DNA of 64,000 nt from Klebsiella phage FKP3. Position numbers and translations under genes: made by a program. The notes beneath the pieces are model-generated. The model saw only the letters and a program-made list of their open reading frames with translations. It was not told the DNA's origin and made no database searches. This document shows positions 501-50,859 of this stretch, piece after piece. How positions within the stretch are numbered: position 1 is the first letter of the stretch; each line of letters opens with the position of its first letter. The DNA lies in sequence record PP895363.1. The stretch is one strand, 5' to 3'.

Positions 501-817
501 GGCGCCCCCATTTTCAAATTTCCGCGAGTCCCAAATATCAATGAGAATCATTCTCATTATTATTATCATTCAATAACTTACGACACTTTTGGTCAAAGAT
601 TGACCGTATTCCATGCCCATCACGATAAACTGACAATAAATCCTTATAAATCAATGGTTTGGCAGTAATAAACATGTGTTTACAAGGTGCCAAATTGCCA
701 CAAAAGGCGACTGATAACGATTCTCATGACAAATCCACTGTATAAGTGAACAGTATCATGCTGCGCATAGCATCAAACGGCTCGAAAATCAAGATAATTC
801 CTAAAAATTTCTCTTTT
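501..817. repeat. direct repeat, copy 2 (exact 500-bp offset from copy 1)
   Basis: exact identity with 1-317. Confidence 0.9.
540..558. promoter_or_regulatory. 19-bp palindrome copy 2
   Basis: identical to 40-58 (inside the direct repeat). Confidence 0.5.
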
Positions 818-939
818 AAAAGAAGTGGCTCAACATTCCGTAGCTGTTCTAACGAACATCTAACGATGTTTTCCCCGCAAATAGTATTAGCTCTGTGCTC
901 AACAATAGCCCACTTCGTGGGCATTTGCTCGCCCGAATA

Positions 940-1700
940 ATATTAATTCTTATTCTCATTAGTGCTCAACATCCCACGCCTCAGCGTGGAATATTTCCGC
1001 CGACAATAGTTATTCTTTTCATTATTTGATTATTAATCGCTAGATTACATCTAACGATTAAATCATTACAATGCTAATCATTAGCTATAGAATTATTTTC
1101 GTTATTCACTCAATAATTCCTCCGCAAATAGATAGTGTGCTAATTGTTTCATAATGAATGATAATCCTATATAGTAATGATACCATTAGGATATCCTTTG
1201 TGTGCTAATAATACGATATGCTAATAATACCGCACGTAATGATTGTAAGCGGAAGCATTACGCTTGCAATTATTGCAAGCTACATAATAACACGAATTAC
1301 TATTAGGAATAGTAATGAGTGGGGTGGTGTAGTTGCGGTATTATTAGCAGCCTACGTTTCCCGCGTAGGCTTGCTAATACATTCTTTGCTAATTATTTCA
1401 TAGATTATTATTGTAAGAATGAATTGTAGATTAATAATACTTTCATTGCTTATTATTGATTAGTTTATTGTTTTATTGTGTTATTGTTAATTAATGAAAT
1501 GATATCAGGTAGATAGATTAGCAAGATAACTATTTATCTATTTATTATTTGATTGTTTATGATTGAATAAATTGTCAATTGTTACTTTGATTGTAAATGA
1601 TTCTCACTATCACACTATGCAATATTCTGCATAATTAAGCACAGATAGATGAGATTGATTATCATTATTGATTAGATTGTTAAATTGGTGGATTTATTGA
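940..1700. repeat. AT-rich non-coding region with repeated CTAATAATAC/ATTATT motifs and palindromes (e.g. gcttgcaat-t-attgcaagc at 1258-1276)
   Basis: no credible ORF; low-complexity repeats and hairpin-forming palindromes. Confidence 0.5.
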
Positions 1701-1867
1701 TCACTTAGATAGTGGCTATGCCTTTTAAAGCTCCTGTAAGCCATTCTAAGAGGCGCAAGCCTCACCCCTGGCACGTGGTCAACCTTGCTTAGAAAACCTC
1801 ATAACGCGATTTATTCACTTTTCTGCTGCGAGTGATTTCAATCGGTAAAAGCTATCATTAAATGATA

Positions 1868-1897
1868 GGCAAAAAGAAAGGGCGCTTTGTGCGCCCC
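1868..1897 (-). terminator. rho-independent terminator for minus-strand early operon
   Basis: gggcgc-tttgt-gcgccc hairpin followed on minus strand by a T-run (tttcttttt). Confidence 0.6.
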
Positions 1898-1911
1898 TTT
1901 GAAATGGTGTT

Positions 1912-2280
1912 TTATTTGTAGGCTGGATCGTTTGTAATGTCCACCCAATGAGATAAATCAATAGTTCCCTTTTCTTTCATCTTCTCTAACAAGCGTTCCG
2001 CGCGGTTAGTGCTATTGATATAATAATCAAAGGTTTCTCCGGTTTCTTCATCCTCTAATGTTTCGATTCGACCGATGATCACGCGATCCAGGGCGTAAAC
2101 TTTGCCAGTGTACCAGTTAGTTAAATGAATCTCACATTTATAATCATCTGACCCGCTGTCAATGGTTACAACGTCGATTAAATCACCTTTAAACACTGAC
2201 AGGCTCCACATAGGATCGTTATCTACTACGCGGCCAAAATCTTTACCTTTGATAGTAGTATTCAGATTGATGATAGTCAT
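1912..2280 (-). CDS. hypothetical protein (early region)
   Basis: ORF, 122 aa, terminator downstream. Confidence 0.5.
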   Translation of the reverse strand: MTIINLNTTIKGKDFGRVVDNDPMWSLSVFKGDLIDVVTIDSGSDDYKCEIHLTNWYTGKVYALDRVIIGRIETLEDEETGETFDYYINSTNRAERLLEKMKEKGTIDLSHWVDITNDPAYK

Positions 2281-2348
2281 TTTCGTTTATCCTATGCGAG
2301 TTTATTGTCGGGGCGCTTATCACGCCCTGGATTGTTAGTCTATTTTAA

Positions 2349-2717
2349 TTAGAATGTTGCACGTTTAATTTTTAATACTTCTACTGTATAACCTAAACTT
2401 AAATACAATGCTTTAACTTCTTTATAACGTCCTGGAAAATTACCACATTTCATTGCAAAATCTGGATTGTTAGTCAATTGCCACTCTTTTGATCCTGGTG
2501 CTGTGCGGATATCTGACACAAACAAACGTTTGTTGTTTTTAGTCACAATCACCAGATCTTCGCCTGTTGGTTCCTCTTCGATCTCTACTACAGAATAGAA
2601 ATTAACACGCGCACTATTAAGAATGCGGCAAGCCTCTTTTGCTTGCTCTTTTGTTGTAAAACGTGAATCTAAAATTGTTTCTTTAAAAGTTAAAGTAGTG
2701 CATTTAATAGCAAACAT
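2349..2717 (-). CDS. hypothetical protein
   Basis: ORF 122 aa. Confidence 0.5.
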   Translation of the reverse strand: MFAIKCTTLTFKETILDSRFTTKEQAKEACRILNSARVNFYSVVEIEEEPTGEDLVIVTKNNKRLFVSDIRTAPGSKEWQLTNNPDFAMKCGNFPGRYKEVKALYLSLGYTVEVLKIKRATF

Positions 2718-3181
2718 GTTAGTTACCTCGTTAAGTTAATTTCGTATTCCTGCCCTACGAGATAAATAATAGCATAACTGATATTTCATGCAAGAGTAGA
2801 TTTGTAAAGAACTGTAAAGAAAACAATTATATGCGAATAGCACACTATAAAATCTTTGTCAAATTTATTTTCATACCCTGTATAAACATACATACCTTTA
2901 AAACGCTCTAGAAACGATTTTAAGCGCTTTTTTGTCCGGGCAATACCCTAGCTCATAAACAAATAGATCTCACTAATAGGAATTTTTCTCATTTAGAAAT
3001 TAAAGTTGGCACGATGTTTGTTGCGAGTAATTCTCATTTGAAGGGAGGCGTCCAAGTTCGGTTAGCTTTCCTGAATGACAGGCAGGTTCGGTGTTTGTCT
3101 CCCCCTGCATCAGGTGCCATCGCATGGCATAAGGATACCAAAAAAGGGGCGATCAAGTCAACCCCTGTAAACACTGTGAAT

Positions 3182-3496
3182 TCATCCAACCTTTCGACCG
3201 TTTGCCCGTTCCCAGGCCCTGGCGATCCTGTGACCTGTTACCCGGTGCGGATCTCCCATCATGCGGAGTGATTCCAGGGTTAACTCAGACCGTTTACGGC
3301 GTAGACTGAGAATCGCTAAAGTGTTGCCCATGTTGCGGCTCGGCCCAGGATTGAACGGGACAGCCCCGGCATTAAGGTTTATGATCTCATGAATGGAGAT
3401 CCGGCGCTGTTTGCTTTCGGCATGTTTGAAGATAGCCAGCGGCGGCGCGATTTGCTGACGATACCAATCTAAAACGGTTGGCGTAATGGCAATCAT
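3182..3496 (-). CDS. hypothetical Arg-rich protein in an atypically GC-rich patch
   Basis: ORF abuts 3493..3687 with ATGA overlap; weak terminator-like hairpin downstream (3140-3170). Confidence 0.35.
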   Translation of the reverse strand: MIAITPTVLDWYRQQIAPPLAIFKHAESKQRRISIHEIINLNAGAVPFNPGPSRNMGNTLAILSLRRKRSELTLESLRMMGDPHRVTGHRIARAWERANGRKVG

Positions 3497-4654: not shown

Positions 4655-4930
4655 TTAGAAAACATCATTAACAATTGCAGCCACAAAAGCAGGCGCATAA
4701 TTTGCCGGGAAAGGCAAGGAAAAATCTTGGCTTGTTTCATCATCATTAGTAATGAAATGATAAGCAAGGGAGTAGTAACCTTTTGAAACTCTTTTCAAGC
4801 TAATGATTAGGATGCTTTCGGCGTTCTCTTTCAACGTGGCGATCATGGTGTCGCCGTCCTGGAATTGCTCAACCATTACGGCGGCGTTTTGCACTTCCTG
4901 AAACATCATTAAACTGTTAGCCTGAATCAT
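4655..4930 (-). CDS. hypothetical protein
   Basis: ORF 91 aa. Confidence 0.45.
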   Translation of the reverse strand: MIQANSLMMFQEVQNAAVMVEQFQDGDTMIATLKENAESILIISLKRVSKGYYSLAYHFITNDDETSQDFSLPFPANYAPAFVAAIVNDVF

Positions 4931-4985
4931 TTTTCTTTACCCTTTTGTTTGCCTGGCTTAAAGATAATCGATCAAGTGCTTCCTG

Positions 4986-5369
4986 TCAACCCTTTAAGTA
5001 ATAACAGCGCGCCATAGTATAAACAACCATTTTACCGATCATATTATCGATAGCCCTTGTCATAAGTGGGTTAACCTGGTAGGGCGCGTAATTCTGCCTC
5101 CCGTTTTCCGCGATCCGCGCTGCGATAAGCTCGCAGGATGCACCAGGGTCATTATTGAGAATAGGTATCATTTGAGAATCAAGCGCGTCCTCAAAGGTTT
5201 TTGATAAGGTGTAAGATCGTAGCGTTGCGTTATTATCACCTGATACAATTAACATTTTTTCAATGCTGGTGCGTAAATCACGGCTTGCGCTCATCACGTT
5301 GATCTCGGTGTCTGCTGCTGCGCTGGCGCTTACTGCTGCCAGCATAGCGGCGATGATAAATTTTTTCAT
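4986..5369 (-). CDS. secreted/periplasmic protein (N-terminal signal peptide MKKFIIAAMLAAVSASAAA)
   Basis: ORF 127 aa with canonical signal peptide. Confidence 0.5.
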   Translation of the reverse strand: MKKFIIAAMLAAVSASAAADTEINVMSASRDLRTSIEKMLIVSGDNNATLRSYTLSKTFEDALDSQMIPILNNDPGASCELIAARIAENGRQNYAPYQVNPLMTRAIDNMIGKMVVYTMARCYYLKG

Positions 5370-5460
5370 TTCGTTTCCTCCCCTAGCTGGCCTTTGACCC
5401 GCTTTATGTATTCATTATGTGCTATTATCGATGCAGTGTCTAATTGTTTAAATCTATCAA

Positions 5461-5643
5461 TCAAAGGTGTTTGATAGATATTACCATCTCCGGCTTCACT
5501 CGGTTTTTCAGGGTATCGATCAGCACGTCGCCGCCCTCGGTAGCCAGAATCACGCCGCTAATGATAAAGCCCCATTGATCACGGTAACGTGCTGAAAGTC
5601 TGCCGCCCTGGGCTAGTGCCTTTTGAATCTGTTCTAATGTCAT
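5461..5643 (-). CDS. hypothetical protein
   Basis: ORF 60 aa. Confidence 0.4.
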   Translation of the reverse strand: MTLEQIQKALAQGGRLSARYRDQWGFIISGVILATEGGDVLIDTLKNRVKPEMVISIKHL

Positions 5644-5925
5644 TGTCTAAGCTCCTGTAGTACGTTCTAAGCGGTTTTTATGGTGCTCCCTGGTGTTTGT
5701 ATGGCTCACTATAGAAAACGCTGTATAAAGCGAAAAGGACGCTATCTGCGCCCCTCCTTATTACTCCCAACGTCGTTTTTCACTCCGATCTCGTTTTGTT
5801 TTATTGCGCTTGTCTCCTTTGCGCCCGGTTTCATCGTCCCATGATTTTCGCTGTTTATCGCTTGCCATTTTTTCGACGTGGTGGCTGCCATTCATTTTTA
5901 AACCCTCATTTTATTTTCAAAGTGT

Positions 5926-5942
5926 GGCGGGAAGTTCCCGCC
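5926..5942 (-). promoter_or_regulatory. conserved stem-loop GGCGGGAAgTTCCCGCC
   Basis: member of GCGGGAA..TTCCCGC hairpin family. Confidence 0.4.
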
Positions 5943-6042
5943 GTTGTTGTGTATCTTATACCAGGTTGTAACCCTTCGCAAGGCTCATCAGTGAACCCGC
6001 CAGATAAAGCCAGTATTGATCACGCTCGCGGTCAATTGTTGC

Positions 6043-6327
6043 TTAGCGGCTAGTATGTTTCAGATAACCCCACTCAATCAAAAGAGAATCAATCTCATTA
6101 TAATAGAATGCAATGCCGATCTCACTCGGCAATCCCTGCAACCATGAGGCCATTGCTTTTGTCATGGTGCCGTAGCGCTGCTGATTTGCTGGATACCAAT
6201 ATTCACATTTAAAGCGGCGCATCAGTTCGGTGATCTTCTCTTCTTCGGTGGTAAACGTTTTGCCGTTCTCGCCTTCAAAGTTAATCGCCGCTAGGATGTA
6301 AGATTTTATTTTTTCTGCTGCTTTCAT
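6043..6327 (-). CDS. hypothetical protein
   Basis: ORF 94 aa. Confidence 0.5.
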   Translation of the reverse strand: MKAAEKIKSYILAAINFEGENGKTFTTEEEKITELMRRFKCEYWYPANQQRYGTMTKAMASWLQGLPSEIGIAFYYNEIDSLLIEWGYLKHTSR

Positions 6328-6351
6328 GGTGTTACCCTTATCTGATTTGGC

Positions 6352-6368
6352 GCGGGAACAACTCCCGC
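6352..6368 (-). promoter_or_regulatory. conserved stem-loop GCGGGAAcaaCTCCCGC downstream of minus-strand promoter
   Basis: hairpin family member; TTGACA-like -35 upstream on minus strand. Confidence 0.4.
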
Positions 6369-6423
6369 CGCCTTGAATACTAATCTACTTTAAACTGTTT
6401 ACCGTGTCAACCTGTTTTTAAAA

Positions 6424-6780
6424 TTATTCTTCGCTCTCTTCCAGATCTTCAATCTCACTTTCAAGGGCGCTTTCCTGCTCTTCCAACTCTTCCAGCTCTT
6501 CTGTCAGTGTAATATATTCCGGCACATCGTCAAGGTCTTTTTCACTGTCATAATCTGATTTGCCGCAACGGTACGCCGTAGGATCGAGATTCTTAAGAGC
6601 ATAAGAGGCGGTATAACTGCTGCCGCAAATGTCAATATCACCGTAGCATCCATCCAAATAAGAATCATACTCATCATCAGTTGACTCATAAGAGAAGTTG
6701 CGGATCTCTTTCTGTTTTGCATAGATAGCCTGTTTAACTTCCAGCAGTTCGGCGCGTTTCTCAATCAGGATGTTATTCAT
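6424..6780 (-). CDS. highly acidic small protein (Glu/Asp-rich C-terminus), possible DNA mimic
   Basis: 118 aa; C-terminal ELEELEEQESALESEIEDLEESEE. Confidence 0.5.
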   Translation of the reverse strand: MNNILIEKRAELLEVKQAIYAKQKEIRNFSYESTDDEYDSYLDGCYGDIDICGSSYTASYALKNLDPTAYRCGKSDYDSEKDLDDVPEYITLTEELEELEEQESALESEIEDLEESEE

Positions 6781-13068: not shown

Positions 13069-14193
13069 TTAATAAAGCAGTGACAGGTTGGCTGAACGTG
13101 TCGTACTTGGTTCCAGAACAATTCGGAAACTATCACCTGGTTCATCGCTGTATACAACCAGTTTACCACCTGCAATCAGGTCTGTCTTCCATTTGGTTGC
13201 ATTCAAATGAATGCGTGGATCACCTTCATCATCAGTGATGATTGCGGAACATTCTTCGAATGCTTCCTGATTGTCCTGTGTTGCTGGACGCAGGTAAATG
13301 TCCAATGTTTTGCTTCCACTCAGGAAGGACATTGGATTGAAACCATGCCAGTTGGACACCCAGTTCACTTCAGCAACCTTACCGTTTACGGTGATGCTGC
13401 TCACATCCCATTTCGCTTCACCGCCAAGGGAAATACCCATCATGTTCAGGCATTCTTTGAAGCTCATGTCTTCGTAGAAATTGAGTTCCTCTACGATGCC
13501 TTGAATAACATCGAAGGAGAGTTCCAAACTCACATCCCATAGACGCTGGAAGCTTGCCTCATGCTCCTTATTATCGAGGTTCTTATCCAGATAATCGAGC
13601 ATTGTCTCCAGGGAGATCTTATCGTAGTTAAAACTGTAGAACACACGACTCGGACGGTTCAGGAAGAACTCGGAGATAAATCCACTATTCTTCGTGAGGA
13701 TAAATAGCTTATTGCCGCTACCCGTACCATCCAGAAGCGTTAACAGTGCTTCCTGATCTTGTTTCTTTTCGTACACTTTGTCGAACTCATCGAAGATGAC
13801 AATGGCTTTATCAGCAATCTTACTCATCAGTTCCAGGAAATTCGCATCGCTGTACGCTTGCGTTACCATAATCACTGGCAAACCTTCTGCTGCCAGCTTA
13901 CGGCTAATCACTTTAGCCAGCATGGTTTTACCACTACCCTTCGTGCCTGACAGGAGAACACCAGTGTTCTTGCCCTGCTCTGCGCGACGTTTATAGGTGG
14001 AGATGATGTGCGCTGCACGTTTCTCTGTCTCACCATACAGGACGCTTGGTACACCTGTCAAATCCCCACGACTCAGGAAGTAGTTACCGAGCGGATCACG
14101 GCTAACTGTCCAGAAACCCGCAGGGAGAGTCTCGCTCTTAACTCCTGCTTCTTTGTCCACTACTGCAATGTCGCCGTAAATTGTGTATGACAC
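13069..14193 (-). CDS. AAA-family ATPase (paralog of 30987..32147)
   Basis: Walker A GTKGSGKT, Walker B VIFDEFD; aligns along full length with the plus-strand paralog; GTG start. Confidence 0.65.
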   Translation of the reverse strand: MSYTIYGDIAVVDKEAGVKSETLPAGFWTVSRDPLGNYFLSRGDLTGVPSVLYGETEKRAAHIISTYKRRAEQGKNTGVLLSGTKGSGKTMLAKVISRKLAAEGLPVIMVTQAYSDANFLELMSKIADKAIVIFDEFDKVYEKKQDQEALLTLLDGTGSGNKLFILTKNSGFISEFFLNRPSRVFYSFNYDKISLETMLDYLDKNLDNKEHEASFQRLWDVSLELSFDVIQGIVEELNFYEDMSFKECLNMMGISLGGEAKWDVSSITVNGKVAEVNWVSNWHGFNPMSFLSGSKTLDIYLRPATQDNQEAFEECSAIITDDEGDPRIHLNATKWKTDLIAGGKLVVYSDEPGDSFRIVLEPSTTRSANLSLLY

Positions 14194-21735: not shown

Positions 21736-21752
21736 TTAATAAAGGAGATCCC

Positions 21753-23759
21753 ATGAACGTAGGCTTAATTTTTGGCAAATTTGCACCACTAACAGCAGGA
21801 CACGTCAACTTCATTCGTATGGCTGTAGACTCAGGTATTGATCGGCTATATCTGTTTCTGTCGTTTGACCAGAAGTTTAACGACACTCAAACACCTTGGA
21901 TGCAAGACCGCCTTGGTTTAACTCAGCGTTTATTGGATCTTAAATCTTTAATTCATGACTCAGGCTTACAACACAAAGTGATTGTAGATTATGTGGATGA
22001 GTCTGATATTCCTGGTTATCCAGAAGGTGGTAAGGCTTATGCCGAGTTGATTCGTGCTAAAATCCCAGAAGGTGAGATCCTCACTCATGCTTTCTCTTCT
22101 GAGCCGGAGTATACTGAGTACTTTTCCGAGCATTTCCCCGAGGTGGAGCACGTTGTGCTGGATGCAGAGCGTACAGGAGTGGATATCTCTGCAACACGTA
22201 TTCGTACTAATCTACGTGACAACTTCGAGTATTTGTCAAATCAAGCTCGTCCTCGTTTTGTTAAGCGGGTAGCTATCATTGGTGTTGAGAGTTGTGTAGA
22301 TAATTTAACCGAATACTTTGACGGTACAAACTGGAAAAAGATGGATGAGTACCGAGAAGGAGATAAAGTTCTACAATATAACCCTAATGGTTCTGCATCT
22401 CTTGTCCTACCTGAACGTTACATAGCGCAACCCTGTAATAAAATGTACCTGTTGGCTAATAGTTACCAAACTTGGGAACAAGCTTACACGGAAGATCACG
22501 ATATTGTGTATGTTACTTCCAAAGGGAAATTGAAGAAAACACCTTTTAAAAGAGTAAAAGAAGATATTCAGTTTAAACCACACGGTTTTCGGGGAAAGTT
22601 ACTAACCTCTTTTATCTACTCTGGGGAGTTGACACTTCCTGAAAACAACATTCGTTTAGCTGTTATGTTAAGCGCGGACGGAAGTAAACAGAAGAACGGA
22701 ACGTGGCGTGTAAGACTGCTAAAACAACGTAAAGTTCTCAGGGCTAGAGAGTTGATCTTGGCGAGTGGTTATCCTTTGGATGAACGTATTTATGAAGACG
22801 GTTCTCATAACTTCTATCTTCCTAGCGAAGCAGGTTTTAAACTTTTTCCTGATACCTGGTATGAGCTAACAAAAGAATGCAAAGAATATATTTGTGAAGA
22901 AGTTTTATACTGGGATGGTACTAAGAAGACTTCTACATACTTTACCACAGAGAAAAAGAATGCTGAATTTGTACAATACTGTTTCTCTTCAACAGGAAAA
23001 AAGACAAGGTATAGTATAGATAATCGGGAAAATAAACCTTTGACTTACTCTGTGCAATGGTGTAGAAATACAAAGTATCTAACACTAGATGTGAATTCAT
23101 TTAATGAGACACATCGAGAACAAATGGTAAGGGATTACGTGCCAACTGATGGAATGTGTTATTGTTTTACTGTGCCTAGTGGTATGCTAGTGTTGCGTAG
23201 AAATAATCATATCTTTATTACTGGGAACTGTGGAAAATCTACTATGACTGAGGTTCTAGCACAACACTACGGAACAACATCGACACCCGAAGTAGGACGG
23301 CATATTTGCGAACAGATGTACAACGGCAGCGAATTTTTAATGGATCGTGAAGCATATCTTAAGATTGCTATGATCCACCGTATCGAGGAGTTTAGTAACT
23401 CAAACCAGGCAAATGTTGTGCATATTTCAGATACAACTAATCTGATCACTCATTTTTCTGCGATTTGTGCTGGTAAAGTATCTGCTAATGATAAAATGTT
23501 TCGTATGTTATCGCATGAAGAGGCTAGCAAATTTTATGATTTAGTGTTATTCTTGTCCCCAGAGGTGGAGTGGGTAGAAGACCCTCTTCGACTTCAAAAT
23601 ACACCAAGAAAACGCCTTGACACGCATAACTTTCTTGATATGATGGTAACACAATACTACGATGGTCGTGTGCCTGTGGTTCATATTACGGGTGATGACT
23701 ACGAAGATCGTATTAACCAGGCAATAACTGCCATTGATTTACTCTTAGAGGAGAACTAA
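21753..23759 (+). CDS. NadR-like bifunctional NMN adenylyltransferase / ribosylnicotinamide kinase precursor containing an intein
   Basis: N-terminus GKFAPLTAGHVNFI and RTGVDISATRIR match E. coli NadR NMNAT (GKFYPLHTGHIYLI, RTFMSISGAQIR). The C-terminus from ...ITGN-CGKSTMTEVL to the end matches the NadR kinase domain. The two halves are split inside the P-loop by 312 aa. Confidence 0.7.
   Translation: MNVGLIFGKFAPLTAGHVNFIRMAVDSGIDRLYLFLSFDQKFNDTQTPWMQDRLGLTQRLLDLKSLIHDSGLQHKVIVDYVDESDIPGYPEGGKAYAELIRAKIPEGEILTHAFSSEPEYTEYFSEHFPEVEHVVLDAERTGVDISATRIRTNLRDNFEYLSNQARPRFVKRVAIIGVESCVDNLTEYFDGTNWKKMDEYREGDKVLQYNPNGSASLVLPERYIAQPCNKMYLLANSYQTWEQAYTEDHDIVYVTSKGKLKKTPFKRVKEDIQFKPHGFRGKLLTSFIYSGELTLPENNIRLAVMLSADGSKQKNGTWRVRLLKQRKVLRARELILASGYPLDERIYEDGSHNFYLPSEAGFKLFPDTWYELTKECKEYICEEVLYWDGTKKTSTYFTTEKKNAEFVQYCFSSTGKKTRYSIDNRENKPLTYSVQWCRNTKYLTLDVNSFNETHREQMVRDYVPTDGMCYCFTVPSGMLVLRRNNHIFITGNCGKSTMTEVLAQHYGTTSTPEVGRHICEQMYNGSEFLMDREAYLKIAMIHRIEEFSNSNQANVVHISDTTNLITHFSAICAGKVSANDKMFRMLSHEEASKFYDLVLFLSPEVEWVEDPLRLQNTPRKRLDTHNFLDMMVTQYYDGRVPVVHITGDDYEDRINQAITAIDLLLEEN
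22293..23228 (+). mobile_element. intein (312 aa) with LAGLIDADG-type homing endonuclease motif, inserted in the kinase P-loop
   Basis: begins with Cys (CVDNLTEY..GDKVL block A-like), has TEDH (TxxH block B-like) and LAVMLSADGSK (LAGLIDADG-like), ends ...FITGN with +1 Cys; excision restores GVES-CGKST Walker A. Confidence 0.6.
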
Positions 23760-24169: not shown

Positions 24170-24358
24170 ATGAAAATTGGTGATCGTGTAAAATGTATTC
24201 GTAGTGAAAGGGAAAAGATTTACTCTGTAGGTACTATCTACGAAGTAGAAGGGCTGGCAGGTATTGGTGCTATGCTTTTACGTGACAATGATGGGGATCT
24301 TGATTCTATTCCCATCCCAATGAATGGGGCTTTTTGGGATTTTGAGCTAGTTGAATGA
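24170..24358 (+). CDS. small protein (paralog of 23761..23976)
   Basis: ORF 62 aa; TTGACA-17-TAAAGT promoter at 23981-24008. Confidence 0.45.
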   Translation: MKIGDRVKCIRSEREKIYSVGTIYEVEGLAGIGAMLLRDNDGDLDSIPIPMNGAFWDFELVE

Positions 24359-26527: not shown

Positions 26528-28369
26528 ATGAGTACAAGAAAACTAAGTTTTACACCTACGGATGAACAACTTGCAATTGAAGGTGCATTCAAAGAAAACC
26601 GTTTTACTACTATTCAAGCCAAATCTGGTAGTGGTAAAACATCAACACTCTATATGTTGGCTAATGGTACAGAGGATAAGATTCTGTATCTTGCATTCAA
26701 CAAGAGCATGGCAGAGGAAGCCCGCCGCAAGATGCCGGATAATGTGGAGTGTCGTACTCTTCACTCTATTTGCTATCAACAACTTGATCAATCTCTGCGT
26801 CACAAGTTGACACGTCCAGAGGGTGCATATGTGAATGTGGCAGGCACTGGTAACGAGATTGCCAAGAAGTTCAAAATCAATAACTTGATTGATAAGAATG
26901 GCAAAACTTTACTCACTCGTGCGATGATTGGGCTGATGGTTAAACAAACTGTAGGCAAGTTTGAATTTTCAGATGATGCTCATCTGGGGCGTAAGCATTT
27001 TCCTACAGTTTATCTCCCAGATCTCAAGCGTAAGAACATTAATGAGAATAAACTGATCACTGAAGTAGTGACATATGCTAAACAGCTTTGGCGTGAGCGT
27101 ATTGACCCTAAATCTGAGACGATCATGACACACGATACTTATGTCAAGTTGTTTGAATTGTCCGGTAAAGACTTGGGATATGATGTTATCTTTGGTGATG
27201 AGTTCCAGGACGTTAACCCTGCTTTCTTATCCATTCTGCGTAATGCCAAGGCAGCTAAACGAATTGTGGTTGTTGGTGATGAATTCCAGAGTATCTATCA
27301 ATTCCGTGGTAGCCAGAATATGATGAAAGAAACTTCCACCTACGGTGTGGAACTTCCTCTTACAGCTTGTTTCCGTTTTGGCCCAAAAGTGGCAGATGTG
27401 GCTAACATGATCTTAGAAGATAAACAACCTCTGACACATCCTTTAGTTGGTAAGGGTTATGATACGACTGTAGGCAGCTATGTATCAGATATAGTAGATT
27501 ATACTAAGCCATATACAATTATCTTCCGTAAAAATCTAACTTTGCTTATGGAAGCAATGGATCGCATCGCAGATGGTGAAGATATTATCATTAACGTTGA
27601 CACCAAAGATTTTATTTCAATGGTAGATAGCGTGAATGCTTTACGTCGAGGGGATATTGAAAAAGTAAAACATGAAACTGTACTGCCCTATGCCACTTGG
27701 GAAGAATTTGTAGACTGTGCAGAAAGTGATCCTGATGCTAAACGTTTGTTAAACGTTGTTGTAAGCGGTAAAGCTAATACAATCGCACATACTTTACGGA
27801 CACACCGAAATTCACCAACTGCAAAAGTAACTCTTACAACAGCGCATAAATCAAAAGGTTTAGAGTGGGATCAAGTTGTTGTTGCAAATGACTTCCCTTC
27901 TAACTATAATAAAGAAAGGGAGTGGGTAGGGCTTGAAGAAGCAGAGCGTAATCTGCTCTATGTAGCACATACACGATGCATAAAATGTCTACAATGGAAT
28001 AGTACTGTCCAGGAAATTATAGACATTAAGCGTGTAGAAGGAGAGAAACACACTGCCCCAAAGGAGAAGCCGCTTAACGGCGGCATCCCCATTGAAAATG
28101 TTCGCTTAGGTGTTTTTGGTGCTGGGTATACAACACCAGACCAAATAAAACAGTTTATAGCTGACAGTTTCGATGGTAATGACAACCATATCCAAGCCTA
28201 CGAAAGTTGGCTAGAAGATGGTGAAGGGGATTTCTTTGGTGAAATAAATATGATGCCTAATTTGTCTCGACTAAAAACCGAGCTTAGTGGATCATCTGGA
28301 GACTGTCATCTCTTAGAAATTCTCGAACGTAAGATAGACCAAGATAACTTCATGGGAGATGATTATTGA
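26528..28369 (+). CDS. UvrD/Rep-type superfamily 1 DNA helicase
   Basis: motif I AKSGSGKTSTL, motif II GDEFQDVNP, motif III VVVGDEFQSIYQFRG. Confidence 0.7.
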   Translation: MSTRKLSFTPTDEQLAIEGAFKENRFTTIQAKSGSGKTSTLYMLANGTEDKILYLAFNKSMAEEARRKMPDNVECRTLHSICYQQLDQSLRHKLTRPEGAYVNVAGTGNEIAKKFKINNLIDKNGKTLLTRAMIGLMVKQTVGKFEFSDDAHLGRKHFPTVYLPDLKRKNINENKLITEVVTYAKQLWRERIDPKSETIMTHDTYVKLFELSGKDLGYDVIFGDEFQDVNPAFLSILRNAKAAKRIVVVGDEFQSIYQFRGSQNMMKETSTYGVELPLTACFRFGPKVADVANMILEDKQPLTHPLVGKGYDTTVGSYVSDIVDYTKPYTIIFRKNLTLLMEAMDRIADGEDIIINVDTKDFISMVDSVNALRRGDIEKVKHETVLPYATWEEFVDCAESDPDAKRLLNVVVSGKANTIAHTLRTHRNSPTAKVTLTTAHKSKGLEWDQVVVANDFPSNYNKEREWVGLEEAERNLLYVAHTRCIKCLQWNSTVQEIIDIKRVEGEKHTAPKEKPLNGGIPIENVRLGVFGAGYTTPDQIKQFIADSFDGNDNHIQAYESWLEDGEGDFFGEINMMPNLSRLKTELSGSSGDCHLLEILERKIDQDNFMGDDY

Positions 28370-30919: not shown

Positions 30920-30986
30920 GGGTTGATTTTCATAGGAGAGGTTGATATACTTCTCCTACACTTTAAAGAGAAAGAAGGAGAAATAC

Positions 30987-32147
30987 ATGTTCACACAATT
31001 TGGTAGTCAAATCTTCCTGCGTCAGAAGTCTGGTATTGATATCGACGTAATCCCAGCGGGTACTTATGGTATTGGTGTTACCCAGCATGGCGAGTGGTTC
31101 CTTTACCCTAAAAACGATATGGAAGTACCAAGTGTAACCTACGGTGATACCGACGATAAATCTGATCGTATTATCAAAACGTTCCTGAGCCGTCAAGGTA
31201 AGAACACTGGTATCCTTCTTGAAGGTACTAAAGGCAGCGGTAAAACTCTGCAAGCAAAAATGCTCTCTGTAGCGCTGCGTAAGATCGGTATCCCTACCAT
31301 CTCCATCGGTAGCCCGTTCAACGGTGAAGATTTTATCAACTTCATGTCTAAGATCAAGCAACCAGTTATGGTGATGGTTGATGAATTTGATAAGCTGTAT
31401 GCCGAGAAAGAGCATCAGGACGGTCTGCTTACTCTGTTGGATGGTGTAGGTGGCTATAACAAACTGTTCGTTCTGACTAAGAACGATGGTTATGTGTCTG
31501 AATTTCTGCGTAACCGACCAAGCCGTATCTTCTATAGCTTCAGCTATAAGAAACTGCCTAAGTCCACGCTGGATGATTACTTAGCTAAAAACTTGGAAAA
31601 CAAAGCGTTCGTGGGTGACTTTGAAACCCTGTACAACCTGTCCTCTGATCTGAACTTCGACGTTGTTCAGTCCCTGGTTGAAGAACTGAATCGTTATCCT
31701 GACGATAAATTTACCGATGCACTGAACCTGATGGGTATTACCATCAATGATGGCGGTACTCGTTCTGCGAAGGAAATTGTAACCTTCAAGGTGAACGGTG
31801 TTGAGCGTAAGGATGACATTACGGACGAGTACGAACTTTACGAGCTGGCTCCGCAGCGTCTGTTCGCTGGCCGCACGTTTGACTTCCGTGTTAAACACCA
31901 CAAAGGTAAGGCGCGTCTGCCGGAAATGGAAAACATTACTCTCGATATCTACGATGACGAGACGGAAGATTGGCACTGGGATTCTGACCTGTTCACCATC
32001 TCTTACAACGAGCAAAATGTTAAGAGCATGGGCGTAGATGGCTTCCACTTCATGTTCAAAGAAGGTGAGAATGTCATCGAACTGGTTATTAAAACAAAAG
32101 AGCAGAAAAGCTACACTGACTACGCTTTTCAGGGTCGTAGCTACTAA
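30987..32147 (+). CDS. AAA-family ATPase (paralog of 13069..14193)
   Basis: GTKGSGKT Walker A, MVDEFD Walker B; colinear similarity to minus-strand paralog; start moved to ATG after AAGGAG. Confidence 0.65.
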   Translation: MFTQFGSQIFLRQKSGIDIDVIPAGTYGIGVTQHGEWFLYPKNDMEVPSVTYGDTDDKSDRIIKTFLSRQGKNTGILLEGTKGSGKTLQAKMLSVALRKIGIPTISIGSPFNGEDFINFMSKIKQPVMVMVDEFDKLYAEKEHQDGLLTLLDGVGGYNKLFVLTKNDGYVSEFLRNRPSRIFYSFSYKKLPKSTLDDYLAKNLENKAFVGDFETLYNLSSDLNFDVVQSLVEELNRYPDDKFTDALNLMGITINDGGTRSAKEIVTFKVNGVERKDDITDEYELYELAPQRLFAGRTFDFRVKHHKGKARLPEMENITLDIYDDETEDWHWDSDLFTISYNEQNVKSMGVDGFHFMFKEGENVIELVIKTKEQKSYTDYAFQGRSY

Positions 32148-48033: not shown

Positions 48034-49803
48034 GTGTCTGAAAACTTAATCACAAGATTTGGTATAACAATAGATTTAAGCCGAGAAGGTCATACAGGTT
48101 GCCCACGATGCATAAGTAATGGTAATGACAGGTCACGTAATAACCTGATGGTGTATGGTCTAGACCAAAATCTGGAACACAGAGGAGCTAAGTGTTTTGC
48201 TTGTCATTACACGATACCTAGCGTAGAGTGGCTAAGAGAAAACGGGGAAGAGCTTGAGGAAGAGGAGGAAATAGTGGGATCAGAGTTTAATCCTGAAATT
48301 CGTAAACTTATTGTGGAGAGTACAGGAACTGACTCCAGAAATTATCGTGGTATAAAAACAGAATACTCTAAGTTTTATGCTGTTCGTTATGAATACGATA
48401 ATGAAAGAAATGTTGTTTCTGTATTATATCCTACAACTATCGATGGAAGTTTAGTAGGTTTTAAAAAACGTATTCATCCTAAAGATTTTAGTAAGCCAAT
48501 TGGACAAGTAGGAAAAGACGTAGAGTTGTTTGGGCAAGTAAAATTTAAGGAGAGGAATCATACCATTCTTATTACAGGCGGCGAACATGACGTACTAGCC
48601 GCTTACCAAATGCTTTCCGAGAACATGGATAAAAAATACGAGGTGCCTGCTGTTGTATGTGGTACTACTGGTGAAATTAGTGCATACAAACAGATTCAAG
48701 CACAATACCATTTTCTTAGTCAGTTTAAGAAAATCATTATTTGTATGGATAATGACAAAGCTGGCGAAGAAGCATTTCAGAACATTCTAAAAGTATTACC
48801 TCGTAACAAAGTTTATCTAATGAAGATGGAACTGAAGGATGCTAATAAATATCTTGAAGAAGGTAGAGAAAAAGACTTTGTTAAAGCTTTTTGGGGAGCT
48901 AAACTGTACACCCCGGCTGGGGTATATGCCTCAAACGTCCTGTATGAGGCTGCACTGGAATGCCTAGAAGCAAAGGTTATCACCCTACCTAGCTTCATGC
49001 GCGTGGCTGCTAACATGCTTGGTGGCGGTTTAGTTGAGGAAGAGATTACTGTTATTTTAGCTAAAACAAGTATCGGTAAAACTCTCCTAGTGAATGAGAT
49101 CACTAAACATATAATCACAGCCCATCCAGAGCATACGTTAGGCATATTATCTTTGGAAGCAACGTATAAAAAGTATTCCAGAAACCTTCTTTCTGCATAC
49201 TTGCATGTTCCTTTACATAGAAAAACAGCGGAAGAAAAGCAACACATTCTCGAAGAAAATAAAGATAAGATTGTTAGATTTTATGAACGTCCTGACGGTA
49301 GTCCTCGTTTCTATGTTTGTGATGACCGTGGTGCTAATGTTGAAAGCATCCAAGAAAAAGTACTGGAAATGATCATCCACTATGGTGTTACAATTCTTGT
49401 AATTGACCCTTATTCCGATCTACTTTCAGGGATGTCTGTACAAGAGCAGGAAGAGCTAGCTACTTGGTTGAAACGTATTATGAAAGAATATGGTATAACT
49501 ATCATAGTAATTTCTCACGTTAAGAAATCTTCAAATAATAGTGATGAGCATATCACTGAAGACGATGCAATGGGGAGTAGCTTCCTTGCTAAAGGTGCAG
49601 GTATTACTATTGCCTTGGAGCGCGATAAACAAGCAGAAGACCCTATGGAACGTAATCGTACATACTGCTATATCTTGAAGAATCGGGAATTCTCTGAGAC
49701 TGGTAAAGCTGGAAGTTTCTTTTATGAAATTAAAACAGCCACCCTGTATGACTACGATCAATACACAAGTAATCCAAACAATATCCCGGAAGGGAGTTAC
49801 TAA
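48034..49803 (+). CDS. T7 gp4-like bifunctional DNA primase/helicase
   Basis: zinc finger CPRC..CFAC, TOPRIM (ITGGEHD, CMDNDKAGEEA), DnaB-type Walker A AKTSIGKT. Confidence 0.8.
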   Translation: MSENLITRFGITIDLSREGHTGCPRCISNGNDRSRNNLMVYGLDQNLEHRGAKCFACHYTIPSVEWLRENGEELEEEEEIVGSEFNPEIRKLIVESTGTDSRNYRGIKTEYSKFYAVRYEYDNERNVVSVLYPTTIDGSLVGFKKRIHPKDFSKPIGQVGKDVELFGQVKFKERNHTILITGGEHDVLAAYQMLSENMDKKYEVPAVVCGTTGEISAYKQIQAQYHFLSQFKKIIICMDNDKAGEEAFQNILKVLPRNKVYLMKMELKDANKYLEEGREKDFVKAFWGAKLYTPAGVYASNVLYEAALECLEAKVITLPSFMRVAANMLGGGLVEEEITVILAKTSIGKTLLVNEITKHIITAHPEHTLGILSLEATYKKYSRNLLSAYLHVPLHRKTAEEKQHILEENKDKIVRFYERPDGSPRFYVCDDRGANVESIQEKVLEMIIHYGVTILVIDPYSDLLSGMSVQEQEELATWLKRIMKEYGITIIVISHVKKSSNNSDEHITEDDAMGSSFLAKGAGITIALERDKQAEDPMERNRTYCYILKNREFSETGKAGSFFYEIKTATLYDYDQYTSNPNNIPEGSY

Positions 49804-50172: not shown

Positions 50173-50859
50173 TTGAAACGTACTGAACATTATCTATACA
50201 ATACTTGGAATTGCATGACACAACGTTGTGAAAATCCAAACAATTCCAACTATACTCAATATGGTTTGAAAGGTATTGATGTTTGTGAACGTTGGTCTTC
50301 CTTTAATCCAGAAGGTTTTAATAACTTTATTCACGACATGGGTGATCGTCCAGAAGGTATGACTTTAGATAGGATAGACACATATAAAGGGTATTCTGTA
50401 GATAACTGTCGATGGGCATCAAAAAGAACTCAACAAAATAATAGACGCATTAATAAGAATAATACCAGTACTGTGCCAGGTGTTCAATGGTCGTCAAATT
50501 CCTCTTGTTGGGTAGCTTCTATATTTCTAAATGGTAAAAATGTTGTTATAGGTAGGTATTCAAATCTAAAAACAGCAGAAAAGTATTATCAACGATCTCT
50601 TGCAATCAAACAAAAATATACAGATAATCTTGCCCTCCTTTGGATAAAAAGGCAAACAGTAAGAACACCCAAAGATAAAAGACTTAATGTACATAAAACT
50701 TCTAAGTATTATGGTGTGTCTTGGGACAAATCACGTAATAAGTGGAAAGCACAAGTAAGTGAAAGACGAGAAGGAAGGCTCGTATCCGTTTTTATTGGTA
50801 GATATAACAGAGAAGAAGAGGCACGAGATGCTGTTTTAAAATATTTGGAGGTGAAATGA
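50173..50859 (+). CDS. HNH homing endonuclease with two AP2 DNA-binding domains
   Basis: YNTWNCMTQRC..YGLKGIDVCERW, LDRIDTYKGYSVDNCRWAS..QQNNRR, then two GVxW..W.A.I..GR.. AP2-like repeats; sits between primase-helicase and DNA polymerase. Confidence 0.6.
   Translation: MKRTEHYLYNTWNCMTQRCENPNNSNYTQYGLKGIDVCERWSSFNPEGFNNFIHDMGDRPEGMTLDRIDTYKGYSVDNCRWASKRTQQNNRRINKNNTSTVPGVQWSSNSSCWVASIFLNGKNVVIGRYSNLKTAEKYYQRSLAIKQKYTDNLALLWIKRQTVRTPKDKRLNVHKTSKYYGVSWDKSRNKWKAQVSERREGRLVSVFIGRYNREEEARDAVLKYLEVK

Follow-up and report, generated by a model that had tools for sequence, protein, structure and literature searches.

A probable intein with a nested LAGLIDADG endonuclease in the P-loop of a NadR-like enzyme of Klebsiella phage FKP3

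NadR-like enzymes have recently been identified as the catalytic half of NARP3, with which phages rebuild NAD+ in counter-defence; NARP3 requires ribosylnicotinamide kinase (RNK) as well as NMNAT activity (PMC13464706). The classic P-loop inteins (DnaB site b, MCM site a, RadA and TerL1-a; PMC4760082, Kelley et al. 2016) are inserted in Walker A and use a Walker A residue as the +1 nucleophile. Mycobacteriophages of cluster A1 carry inteins in Bethlehem gp51/52 (RDF) and Switzer gp56 (TOPRIM/primase). Splicing is complete in the Bethlehem RDF intein, which shows endonuclease toxicity and is slowed by the G316H substitution, Gly being better than His for its splicing (PMC5050341). The AceL NrdHF split intein (PDB 6ZGQ; Hoffmann et al. 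2020, PMC7891396) has a proven class 3 mechanism. The origin of class 3 inteins is debated, divergence from a phage class 1 intein being set against convergence.

Here we analysed a window of Klebsiella phage FKP3 (the whole stretch of DNA under study, 64,000 nucleotides of record PP895363.1) and found an insert in the RNK Walker A of a NadR-like enzyme. This insert is very probably a true intein, composed of a Hint-fold splicing domain and a nested two-motif LAGLIDADG homing endonuclease. A literature search on inteins with NadR or nicotinamide found no published NadR intein.

The split NadR-like gene

The precursor gene and its predicted parts are as follows.

21742..21747, + strand: Shine-Dalgarno-like AAGGAG, 5 nt before the ATG, read from the sequence
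21753..23759, + strand: precursor ORF, NadR-like NMNAT/RNK with intein, 668 aa, 77.4 kDa
21753..22292, + strand: N-extein, aa 1-180 (PHROG 3462, E 7.6e-107; TIGR01526; 9X6F alignment), with the NMNAT domain (GKFAPLTAGH, ISATRIR) and the first half of the RNK Walker A (IIGVES)
22293..23228, + strand: probable intein, 312 aa, 36.7 kDa, Cys1 to Asn312 (precursor aa 181-492)
22293..22607, + strand: Hint N-lobe, intein aa 1 to ~105, approximate boundary from the secondary structure of the model
22293-22331, + strand: block A, CVDNLTEYFDGTN, the first 13 intein residues, within the Hint N-lobe
22488-22499, + strand: block B, TEDH, intein aa 66-69, with His69 at 22497-22499
22608..23117, + strand: LAGLIDADG homing-endonuclease domain, intein aa ~106-275
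22656-22685, + strand: LAGLIDADG motif 1, LAVMLSADGS, intein aa 122-131, with Asp129
22890-22922, + strand: LAGLIDADG motif 2, ICEEVLYWDGT, intein aa 200-210, with Asp208
23118..23228, + strand: Hint C-lobe, containing blocks F and G
23157-23201, + strand: block F, CYCFTVPSGMLVLRR, with Cys291 (precursor 471) at F:4, 23163-23165
23208-23228, + strand: block G, HIFITGN, with Thr310, Gly311 and Asn312
23229..23231, + strand: +1 Cys codon TGT (Cys493), predicted C-extein nucleophile, Walker A position x4
23229..23759, + strand: C-extein, aa 493-668 and stop codon, remainder of the RNK domain (CGKST...)

The insertion lies between Walker A positions x3 and x4 of the RNK domain (G-V-E-S | C-G-K-S-T). 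When the insert was excised in silico, a 356-aa protein with GVESCGKST was obtained, and the splice-junction peptide expected from intein removal is ...IIGVESCGKSTMTE.... An earlier sequence-only reading had placed a 312-aa insert at 22293..23228 of the 668-aa ORF and had described the Walker A as split GVES|C…TGN|CGKST and restored by excision; both statements proved right, the first to the base. Using 20 family inteins as tblastn queries we detected no second intein copy in the window, and a tRNA scan of the window found no tRNA.

From end to end, the spliced sequence aligned with the phage NadR-like protein Bas30_86 (crystal structure 9X6F; E 1.5e-55, residues 3-353 against 10-349), in which a Ser aligns with the +1 Cys of the FKP3 protein, and with H. 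influenzae NadR (1LW7; E 5e-36). The TIGR01526 alignment spans profile positions 1-324 of 325, with a score of 181.5 bits that lies below the curated 341-bit cutoff. The domain order is NMNAT followed by RNK without an N-terminal HTH, colinear with the characterised NARP3 members of the Bas30_86 type. These matches bear out the NadR-like NMNAT/RNK identity that had been proposed from the letters alone. Our best joint explanation, which we hold to be highly probable, is that a true intein with a nested LAGLIDADG domain resides in the NadR component of NARP3, a phage NadR-like enzyme for NAD+ reconstitution. Purifying selection on the exteins is strong (dN/dS 0.04-0.10), and the last 93 C-extein codons (23478-23756) form a diverged recombinant patch. 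A gene for a PnuC-type transporter, the partner in the two-gene NARP3 module, gave no tblastn match anywhere within the 64-kb window, and the pnuC-syntenic segment of phages KP2025 and L007 is deleted there; the role of the host enzyme in FKP3 is therefore uncertain.

Intein-free alleles and the intein family

Klebsiella phages KP2025, KP13-16, KP13-26 and phi1_175008 carry the same gene, at ~90-95% DNA identity, without the 936 bases. Alignment to these four alleles was exactly colinear, and the intein-free insertion site in KP2025 reads ...ATCATTGGTGTTGAGAGCACTGGCAAATCCACTATG.... Comparison with intein-free NadR homologues, which the sequence-only reading had suggested as a check, thus returned four alleles lacking exactly aa 181-492; together with full-length homologues and conserved motifs, they uphold its proposal of an intein with a LAGLIDADG endonuclease. 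The +1 codon is TGT with the intein and ACT or ACC (Thr) in the intein-free alleles. Likewise, the +1 residue is Cys in all 23 further intein-bearing NadR-like proteins and Thr or Ser in intein-free NadRs. Five substitutions in a 13-nt stretch around the site relative to KP2025 were considered as a co-conversion tract, which was rejected because only the +1 codon differs consistently when two more intein-bearing alleles are included.

The canonical intein ends (Cys1, Asn312 and the +1 Cys) and the TxxH of block B (TEDH) are present. The predicted structure has a Hint fold with high confidence, and its helices at intein residues 117-129 and 194-208 correspond to both LAGLIDADG helices, each ending in the catalytic Asp; by fold or sequence model, the domain qualifies as a LAGLIDADG homing endonuclease. 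Of the motifs named beforehand, TEDH and LAVMLSADGS stood, GDKVL was found to lie not in block A but in the next conserved strand, and the second LAGLIDADG-type motif, ICEEVLYWDGT, had been overlooked. The absence of a Hint-domain hit had been named in advance as a result that would speak against an intein. Pfam and NCBIfam indeed returned no family at E <= 1 within the insert, neither Hint nor LAGLIDADG, and a single-sequence PDB search with the insert gave no match. Among 20 relatives, LAGLIDADG_3 matched 8, Intein_splicing 2 (E 0.009) and Hint 1 (E 0.065). The missing Pfam and NCBIfam matches reflect weak models, not an absent domain.

In unrelated proteins we found full-length homologues of the insert that share its ends (best E-value 3e-71). 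Together with the four colinear alleles that lack the 936 bases, these homologues put the insertion far outside what chance could produce. The family, with 154 phage records and hundreds of proteins, has the ends C[VL]D...TGN|[C/S/T] throughout and is always found at one sub-site of Walker A, Gxxx|xGK[ST], in phage ATPases and kinases of many unrelated kinds. Besides that of FKP3, at least 23 NadR-like proteins carry an intein at the same site, all with a +1 Cys, and the 24 NadR inteins form a single clade in a neighbour-joining tree. The view that FKP3 has the only recorded NadR intein was abandoned, as a full-length query found 91% identical NadR alleles, which an intein-only query of a 5.8-billion-protein database had missed. 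Across a sample of 62 inteins, His69, Cys291 and Arg302 are invariant and the LAGLIDADG Asp residues are kept in 60 and 61 members, and the conserved endonuclease Lys residues are also retained. Cys occupies position 1 in every family member retrieved, including all 19 full-length matches of one search, a universality that is partly by construction, given that the family extraction pattern demanded a starting Cys.

Several residues typical of class 1 inteins are missing: Gly311 replaces the penultimate His (G:6), Cys291 the Asp at F:4 and Val300 the His at F:13, and the same substitutions were seen in all 62 inteins sampled. The penultimate Gly had been called atypical at first reading, and so had the NAD-salvage host. 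Neither is peculiar to FKP3, the Gly being invariant among the family members retrieved, and related inteins being carried by the further NadR-like proteins and by a Staphylococcus phage NAMPT. The penultimate His, the block F Asp and the block F His are typical of inteins and not obligatory, because the Bethlehem RDF intein, which has a penultimate Gly, splices (PMC5050341). Their joint absence does leave the chemistry of Asn cyclisation unexplained here. The insert is a genuine member, though a fairly ordinary one, of a phage intein family that is large and poorly annotated.

Splicing route and mobility

We infer the following steps for splicing and homing. Translation would give a 77-kDa precursor with an intact NMNAT domain and a split P-loop, in which the kinase would be unable to bind ATP. 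Cys181 (intein Cys1) would form a thioester at the Ser180-Cys181 bond, assisted by Thr66 and His69 of block B, and the N-extein would be transferred to Cys493 (+1). Cyclisation of Asn492 would release the 36.7-kDa intein, and an S-to-N shift would yield a 40.7-kDa enzyme with GVESCGKST. The absence of the penultimate His, F Asp and F His, which is a family trait, would presumably be offset by the invariant Cys291 (F:4), Thr310 (G:5) and Arg302. The freed intein or the precursor may act as a site-specific endonuclease that cuts the Walker-A-coding DNA of intein-free nadR alleles in co-infecting relatives, and recombinational repair of the cut allele would copy the intein in. Both the activity and the target of the endonuclease are putative, and the signs of cleavage and homing are indirect (low dN/dS, discordant intein and extein divergence, patchy distribution).

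That the insert does not splice, being either a permanent domain or the sign of a nadR inactivated in FKP3, would fit the empty Pfam search, the missing canonical penultimate His and the loss of the PnuC partner gene from the window, as the pathway could be decaying. We consider this very improbable, since the reading frame is unbroken, the exteins are strongly purified (dN/dS 0.04-0.10), the residues at the splice junctions do not vary, the +1 Cys strictly co-varies with intein presence, the Hint fold is modelled with high confidence and a Walker A left split could not bind ATP. A splicing intein might, however, use a class-3-like or hybrid route, in which Cys291, activated by His69 and Thr310, attacks the N-terminal junction first or carries the branched intermediate, leaving Cys1 dispensable or auxiliary. 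Cys(F:4), His(B:10) and Thr(G:5), invariant in the family, are the proposed class 3 catalytic triad (PMC7664689), and the spacing of 21 residues from Cys291 to Asn312 is that of the class 3 inteins MP-Be DnaB and Msm DnaBi1. AceL NrdHF, like the FKP3 family, lacks Trp B:12, His F:13 and the penultimate His (PMC7891396), and the main text of PMC5050341 reports no C1A substitution in the related RDF intein of Bethlehem. On the other hand, class 3 inteins have no N-terminal nucleophile, and Cys1 is present here, as in every family member extracted with a pattern that required Cys. Position 1 of class 3 inteins usually drifts to Ala or Pro. In addition, block B has Thr or Ser at position 7, like class 1 inteins; the +1 residue of the family is mostly Cys, whereas class 3 inteins favour Ser or Thr; and B:12 is Ile in FKP3 and V/I/L/F/M across the family, never Trp. 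In the WCT triplet (Trp B:12, Cys F:4, Thr G:5), Cys291 and Thr310 are invariant and B:12 is Ile; the proven class 3 AceL NrdHF also lacks the Trp. Related phage inteins were placed in class 1 by Kelley et al. Taken together, we regard a class-3-like route as possible but rather unlikely. Only tentatively do we suggest that the family stands between classes 1 and 3 as a natural intermediate, based on Cys1 together with the F:4/B:10/G:5 triad, the lost penultimate and F His, and the closest solved relative being class 3.

Another reading is an intein that still splices but has lost its mobility, its endonuclease being inactive and the element being kept in vertical descent since imprecise loss would destroy the P-loop. 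Decayed endonucleases are common among inteins, and the +1 codon of intein-free relatives differs from that of intein-bearing alleles, so these relatives might be poor homing targets. Against this, neither the pair of catalytic Asp residues nor the conserved Lys residues have been lost. Judged from the codons of the window and the P0024 allele, the endonuclease domain is under purifying selection, with dN/dS 0.074 for this domain and for the whole intein alike, values that are approximate as a dS of ~1.6 is near saturation. Furthermore, between these two close phages the intein dS is 7-fold that of the flanking N-extein (1.64 vs 0.22), a disagreement that indicates horizontal exchange. The intein was more conserved than the extein in 95% of 276 NadR pairs, with extreme pairs such as 34% vs 74%; distant NadRs have inteins that are much more alike than their exteins. 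The distribution of the intein among close relatives is patchy. These comparisons suggest that the intein is probably still mobile, and we consider the immobile state improbable.

Consequences and comparison with known inteins

The precursor is 100% identical to UniRef A0AAU8HZW6 of Klebsiella phage FKP3, where the UniProt name 'RNA ligase' is a mis-annotation of the NadR-like intein precursor. As standard domain models miss the intein, annotation is largely lacking for the whole family, with its hundreds of members in ATPases and kinases of phages, and wrong names spread through homology transfer. The kinase half of the enzyme in FKP3, as in no fewer than 23 other lineages, would be functional only after protein splicing, so that NAD+ counter-defence would include an additional post-translational step that may also serve as a point of control. 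The three clustered thiols (Cys1, Cys291 and Cys+1) could make maturation of the NARP3 kinase redox- or metal-sensitive during infection. The mixed class 1/class 3 catalytic signature offers a testable handle on the origin of class 3 splicing, and should Cys291 act as a nucleophile (a dual-thiol or relay mechanism), that debate would find its missing link in the family. A compact intein that tolerates Gxxx|CGK without a penultimate His could serve protein engineering, and its endonuclease, which probably targets P-loop-coding DNA, could serve genome engineering.

The nearest characterised relative of the FKP3 intein is only ~21% identical. The cluster A1 inteins are likewise phage-borne, of ~312-317 aa, with Cys1 and LAGLIDADG (PMC5050341), and share the block F pattern ...[YW]C.[RT]VP... 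and the TGN C-terminus with penultimate Gly; the Bethlehem RDF intein carries the same ...C..V...TGN| signature. Switzer gp56 aligns over its full length (E 5e-19) and the Bethlehem RDF intein over 226 aa (E 0.001), but identity is only 21-24%, the hosts are actinophages, the insertion sites are a metallophosphoesterase motif and a TOPRIM active site instead of a P-loop, and the RDF intein has a +1 Ser. The closest solved relative of the family is a class 3 intein. AceL NrdHF shares Cys F:4 and Thr G:5 with the FKP3 family, as well as the lack of Trp B:12, His F:13 and penultimate His, and is probably of phage origin. However, it has Ala1, is naturally split with a free-standing GIY-YIG endonuclease where FKP3 has an inserted LAGLIDADG domain, and resides in a ribonucleotide reductase.

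The intein of the Staphylococcus phage Stab23 NAMPT (g198, LR215720) is 27.7% identical over its full length and occupies another NAD-salvage host. It shares Cys1 and the penultimate Gly, with VHCVSVP as block F, but interrupts the IPA|TEHS motif of the NAMPT active site and not a P-loop, and has Ser at G:5 and a +1 Thr. The GenBank record of Stab23 already mentions a Hint domain. The endonuclease-bearing class 1 inteins PI-SceI, TliVMA/PhoVMA, PI-PfuI and PI-PkoII, from archaeal or yeast hosts, are 10-15% identical to the FKP3 intein, keep the penultimate His and block F Asp, and are larger, with extra DNA-recognition regions. Like the classic P-loop inteins, that of FKP3 is inserted in Walker A and has a Walker A residue as its predicted +1 nucleophile. 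The TerL1-a site lies between the invariant Lys and Thr/Ser (GK|T), whereas the insertion point of the FKP3 family is upstream of it by two residues (Gxxx|xGK) and makes the variable x4 position the +1 residue, which hence must be Cys, Ser or Thr.

The insert in the NadR Walker A motif

In Klebsiella phage FKP3 the NadR-like NMNAT/RNK is encoded as a precursor whose kinase Walker A motif is interrupted. The following features were read from the sequence:

21742-21747, + strand: Shine-Dalgarno AAGGAG, a good match, ahead of ORF 21753..23759
21753..23759, + strand: precursor ORF, 668 aa
22293..23228, + strand: insert, 312 aa, Cys181 to Asn492
Asp129 of the intein, + strand: LAGLIDADG helix 1, LAVMLSADGS
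Asp208 of the intein, + strand: LAGLIDADG helix 2, ICEEVLYWDGT

The split claimed by the sequence-only reading proved exact: the N-extein ends in GVES at aa 180 and, after the 312 aa, the C-extein opens with Cys493-Gly-Lys-Ser-Thr. The alignment it proposed with intein-free NadR homologues was colinear for four Klebsiella phages (KP2025, KP13-16, KP13-26 and phi1_175008; ~90-95% DNA identity), whose gene lacks the 936 bases and reads GVES-TGKST against GVES-[312 aa]-CGKST in FKP3. G+C content is 37.1% in the insert, 41.8% in the exteins and 39.9% in the window.

The other suggested check, for Hint/intein and LAGLIDADG profiles, drew a blank on the insert itself in Pfam and NCBIfam, as did a single-sequence PDB search. 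In PHROGs, two intein-bearing families, "PhoH-like" and ribonucleotide-reductase, matched the insert in their central part. We also found full-length relatives by tblastn (25-35% identity) in 154 phage records, hosted by helicases, primase-helicases, PhoH, RtcB, terminases and one NAMPT. Pfam LAGLIDADG_3 was matched by 8/20 relatives (best E 4e-6) and Intein_splicing by 2/20. An AlphaFold model derived from these 20 relatives scored pLDDT 94.2 and pTM 0.90; its top Foldseek matches were TliVMA (7qsu, E 5.8e-14), PhoVMA, PI-SceI and PI-PfuI, followed by I-DmoI. From these matches, and from its absence in the four relatives, we conclude that the insert is an intein, for which splicing, cleavage and homing are predicted; the noted LAGLIDADG-like motif is one of its two LAGLIDADG helices.

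No intein was found in any of the four other likely P-loop proteins of the window, two of which are ATPases (PHROG 2376). Helicases and primase-helicases of other phages do harbour relatives of the NadR intein. The window (1-64000) spans the replication module, with helicases, primase/helicase and DNA polymerase (50856-53435), and a tRNA scan of the 64 kb detected no tRNA genes. Other features are:

13069-14193, - strand; 26528-28369, 30942-32147 and 48034-49803, + strand: intein-free genes for two ATPases (PHROG 2376), a DNA helicase (PHROG 1967) and a primase/helicase (PHROG 239)
55889-57862 and 58500-60890, - strand: two tail-fibre or depolymerase-like genes

Selection and exchange among nadR alleles

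Compared with the P0024 allele, carried on a 143.8-kb metagenomic phage contig (L007), the window gave a dS of 0.22 for the N-extein and 1.64 for the intein. The dN/dS was 0.074 for both the whole intein and the endonuclease domain, and 0.05-0.10 for the exteins, ratios that are approximate because intein dS is near saturation. Against the P0023 allele, DNA identity was 97% in the endonuclease part and 89% in the N-terminal Hint part, and the intein itself is therefore mosaic. In 95% of 276 NadR-intein protein pairs, conservation was higher in the intein than in the extein (mean identity over all pairs 52.5% and 38.2%, respectively; extreme pairs at 34% against 74%). Furthermore, the intein is absent from NadRs 55-57% identical to the FKP3 protein and present in NadRs 28-42% identical to it. 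Taken together, these comparisons show that both domains are under purifying selection and that nadR alleles have repeatedly undergone horizontal exchange, a pattern expected of homing.

The last 93 nadR codons (23478-23756, ORF aa 576-668) share ~64% DNA identity with the KP2025, P0023 and P0024 alleles, compared with 90-94% in the remaining extein; this looks like a recombinant patch independent of the intein. The KP13-16 homologue (OP617741, CDS 85755-87356), annotated as 533 aa, is NadR-like through ...LRLQDTDSK and unrelated beyond, which looks like a C-terminal fusion or rearrangement.

The interrupted enzyme and its public record

Without the insert, the remaining 356 aa matched the Bas30_86 crystal structure (9X6F/9X6H; E 1.5e-55, residues 3-353 to 10-349), H. 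influenzae NadR (1LW7; E 5e-36), E. coli NadR (8X7F) and PHROG 3462 (E 7.6e-107), and covered positions 1-324 of 325 in TIGR01526 and 1-164 of 164 in Pfam AAA_28. Bas30_86 supplies the NadR-like half of NARP3. Encoded by two phage genes, for a PnuC transporter and a NadR-like NMNAT/RNK, this pathway restores NAD+ drained by Sir2-HerA defence and requires the NMNAT and RNK domains alike; the NARP3 paper is silent on inteins (PMC13464706). The Ser of Bas30_86 (IIGTESSGKTT) aligns with the +1 Cys of FKP3 NadR. The nicotinamide riboside transporter gene, pnuC, lies ~750 nt 3' of nadR in KP2025 and L007 (compare 4672-5848 and 5757-6449, respectively) and is deleted from FKP3 at 24333-24354. No PnuC homologue was found anywhere within the 64-kb window, and the NARP3 module is therefore incomplete in FKP3, at least within these 64 kb.

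The precursor is 100% identical to UniRef A0AAU8HZW6 (Klebsiella phage FKP3), labelled "RNA ligase", probably by transfer through similarity of its intein to RtcB-borne inteins. FKP3 (142 kb) belongs to Stephanstirmvirinae, and its paper leaves the intein unmentioned and reports an 'RDF' gene (PMC11663894), a name that could have a similar origin because mycobacteriophage RDFs contain a related intein. Of the genomes in the phage collection, KP2025 comes closest (91.8% identity across 77% of a 24-kb stretch). We found no report of a NadR intein in the searchable literature, but public sequence data already contain the element many times, unannotated or mis-named.

Family, splicing signature and insertion site

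Searching at full length gave 711 proteins at E <= 1e-20, a count from a word-indexed search known to miss members. At least 23 NadR-like proteins (648-722 aa) have the intein at the identical site, G[VTS]ES/C...TGN/C[GS]K (slashes mark intein boundaries), all 23 with +1 Cys. Where NadR is intein-free, the aligned residue is Thr (P0044, P0045 and P0047 as well as the four Klebsiella phages) or Ser (Bas30_86). In the FKP3 phage group, the sole consistent flanking difference is this codon, TGT in three intein-bearing versus ACT/ACC in four intein-free alleles. Further hosts are RecD-like helicases, DnaB, primase-helicases, DnaC/IstB-like loaders, TerL, an AAA+ ATPase, a clamp-loader-like protein, a polynucleotide kinase, a protein whose source calls it guanylate kinase and VirE-like proteins, and in all of these the intein lies at Gxxx/[C/S/T]GK[S/T/D]. 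A few members lie outside P-loops, in RtcB, methyltransferase motif I, MetK and NAMPT. In a neighbour-joining tree drawn without support values, inteins cluster chiefly by host protein, and the 24 NadR inteins form one clade adjoining AAA_33/PNK kinase and RecD inteins.

The NAD-salvage host had been considered atypical. Besides the 23 NadR-like proteins, the family occurs in Staphylococcus phage Stab23 g198 (784-3222), a nicotinamide phosphoribosyltransferase, at IPA/CYDKDTE...VHCVSVP...VSGN/TEHS; this adds a second kind of NAD-salvage enzyme to the phage proteins split by it. The metagenomic methyltransferase-like P0122 (1046 aa) contains two family inteins, ending ...FITGN/CGAGIG and ...FITGN/CGFGGR, and the CG.G after each looks like SAM-binding motif I.

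The penultimate Gly, also thought atypical, is the family rule: Cys1 and Thr310-Gly311-Asn312 occur in 62/62 inteins sampled, partly by construction since the extraction pattern demanded them, but 19/19 full-length hits fit that pattern. His69 (B:10), Cys291 and Arg302, which the pattern did not demand, are unchanged in 62/62. B:7 is Ser/Thr, B:12 a variable hydrophobic (Ile in FKP3) and F:13 Val/Ile; the penultimate His, block F Asp and block F His typical of class 1 inteins are therefore all missing from the family. It has the Cys(F:4)-His(B:10)-Thr(G:5) triad known from class 3 inteins (PMC2807308, PMC7664689), with 21 residues from F:4 to Asn as in MP-Be DnaB (Cys320-Asn341) and Msm DnaBi1 (Cys118-Asn139). 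In our view, class 1-type initiation via Cys1 is the more likely because Cys1 and the B:7 Ser/Thr are conserved; that Cys291 acts in a class-3-like or relay manner is rather unlikely. The signature, as read from the alignments, is mixed class 1/class 3.

Among known systems, the mycobacteriophage Bethlehem RDF intein (...VWCLRVPNG...HLTGN/S) is distantly related (E 0.001 over 226 aa) and the cluster A1 primase intein (...VYCVSVP...SVTGN/C) is related over its full length (E 5e-19). The RDF intein splices completely, is slowed by G316H and has an endonuclease toxic in E. coli; the main text of that report contains no Cys1 mutant (PMC5050341). That phage P-loop proteins can carry inteins with LAGLIDADG endonucleases is well known (PMC4760082, PMC5050341), and in FKP3 NadR the host protein and insertion site are new while the intein type is not. 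What goes beyond routine is that the intein interrupts a newly recognised counter-defence enzyme and that its family shows the mixed signature. Its Gxxx/xGK sub-site lies two residues upstream of the "classic" GK/T P-loop insertion (PMC5050341).
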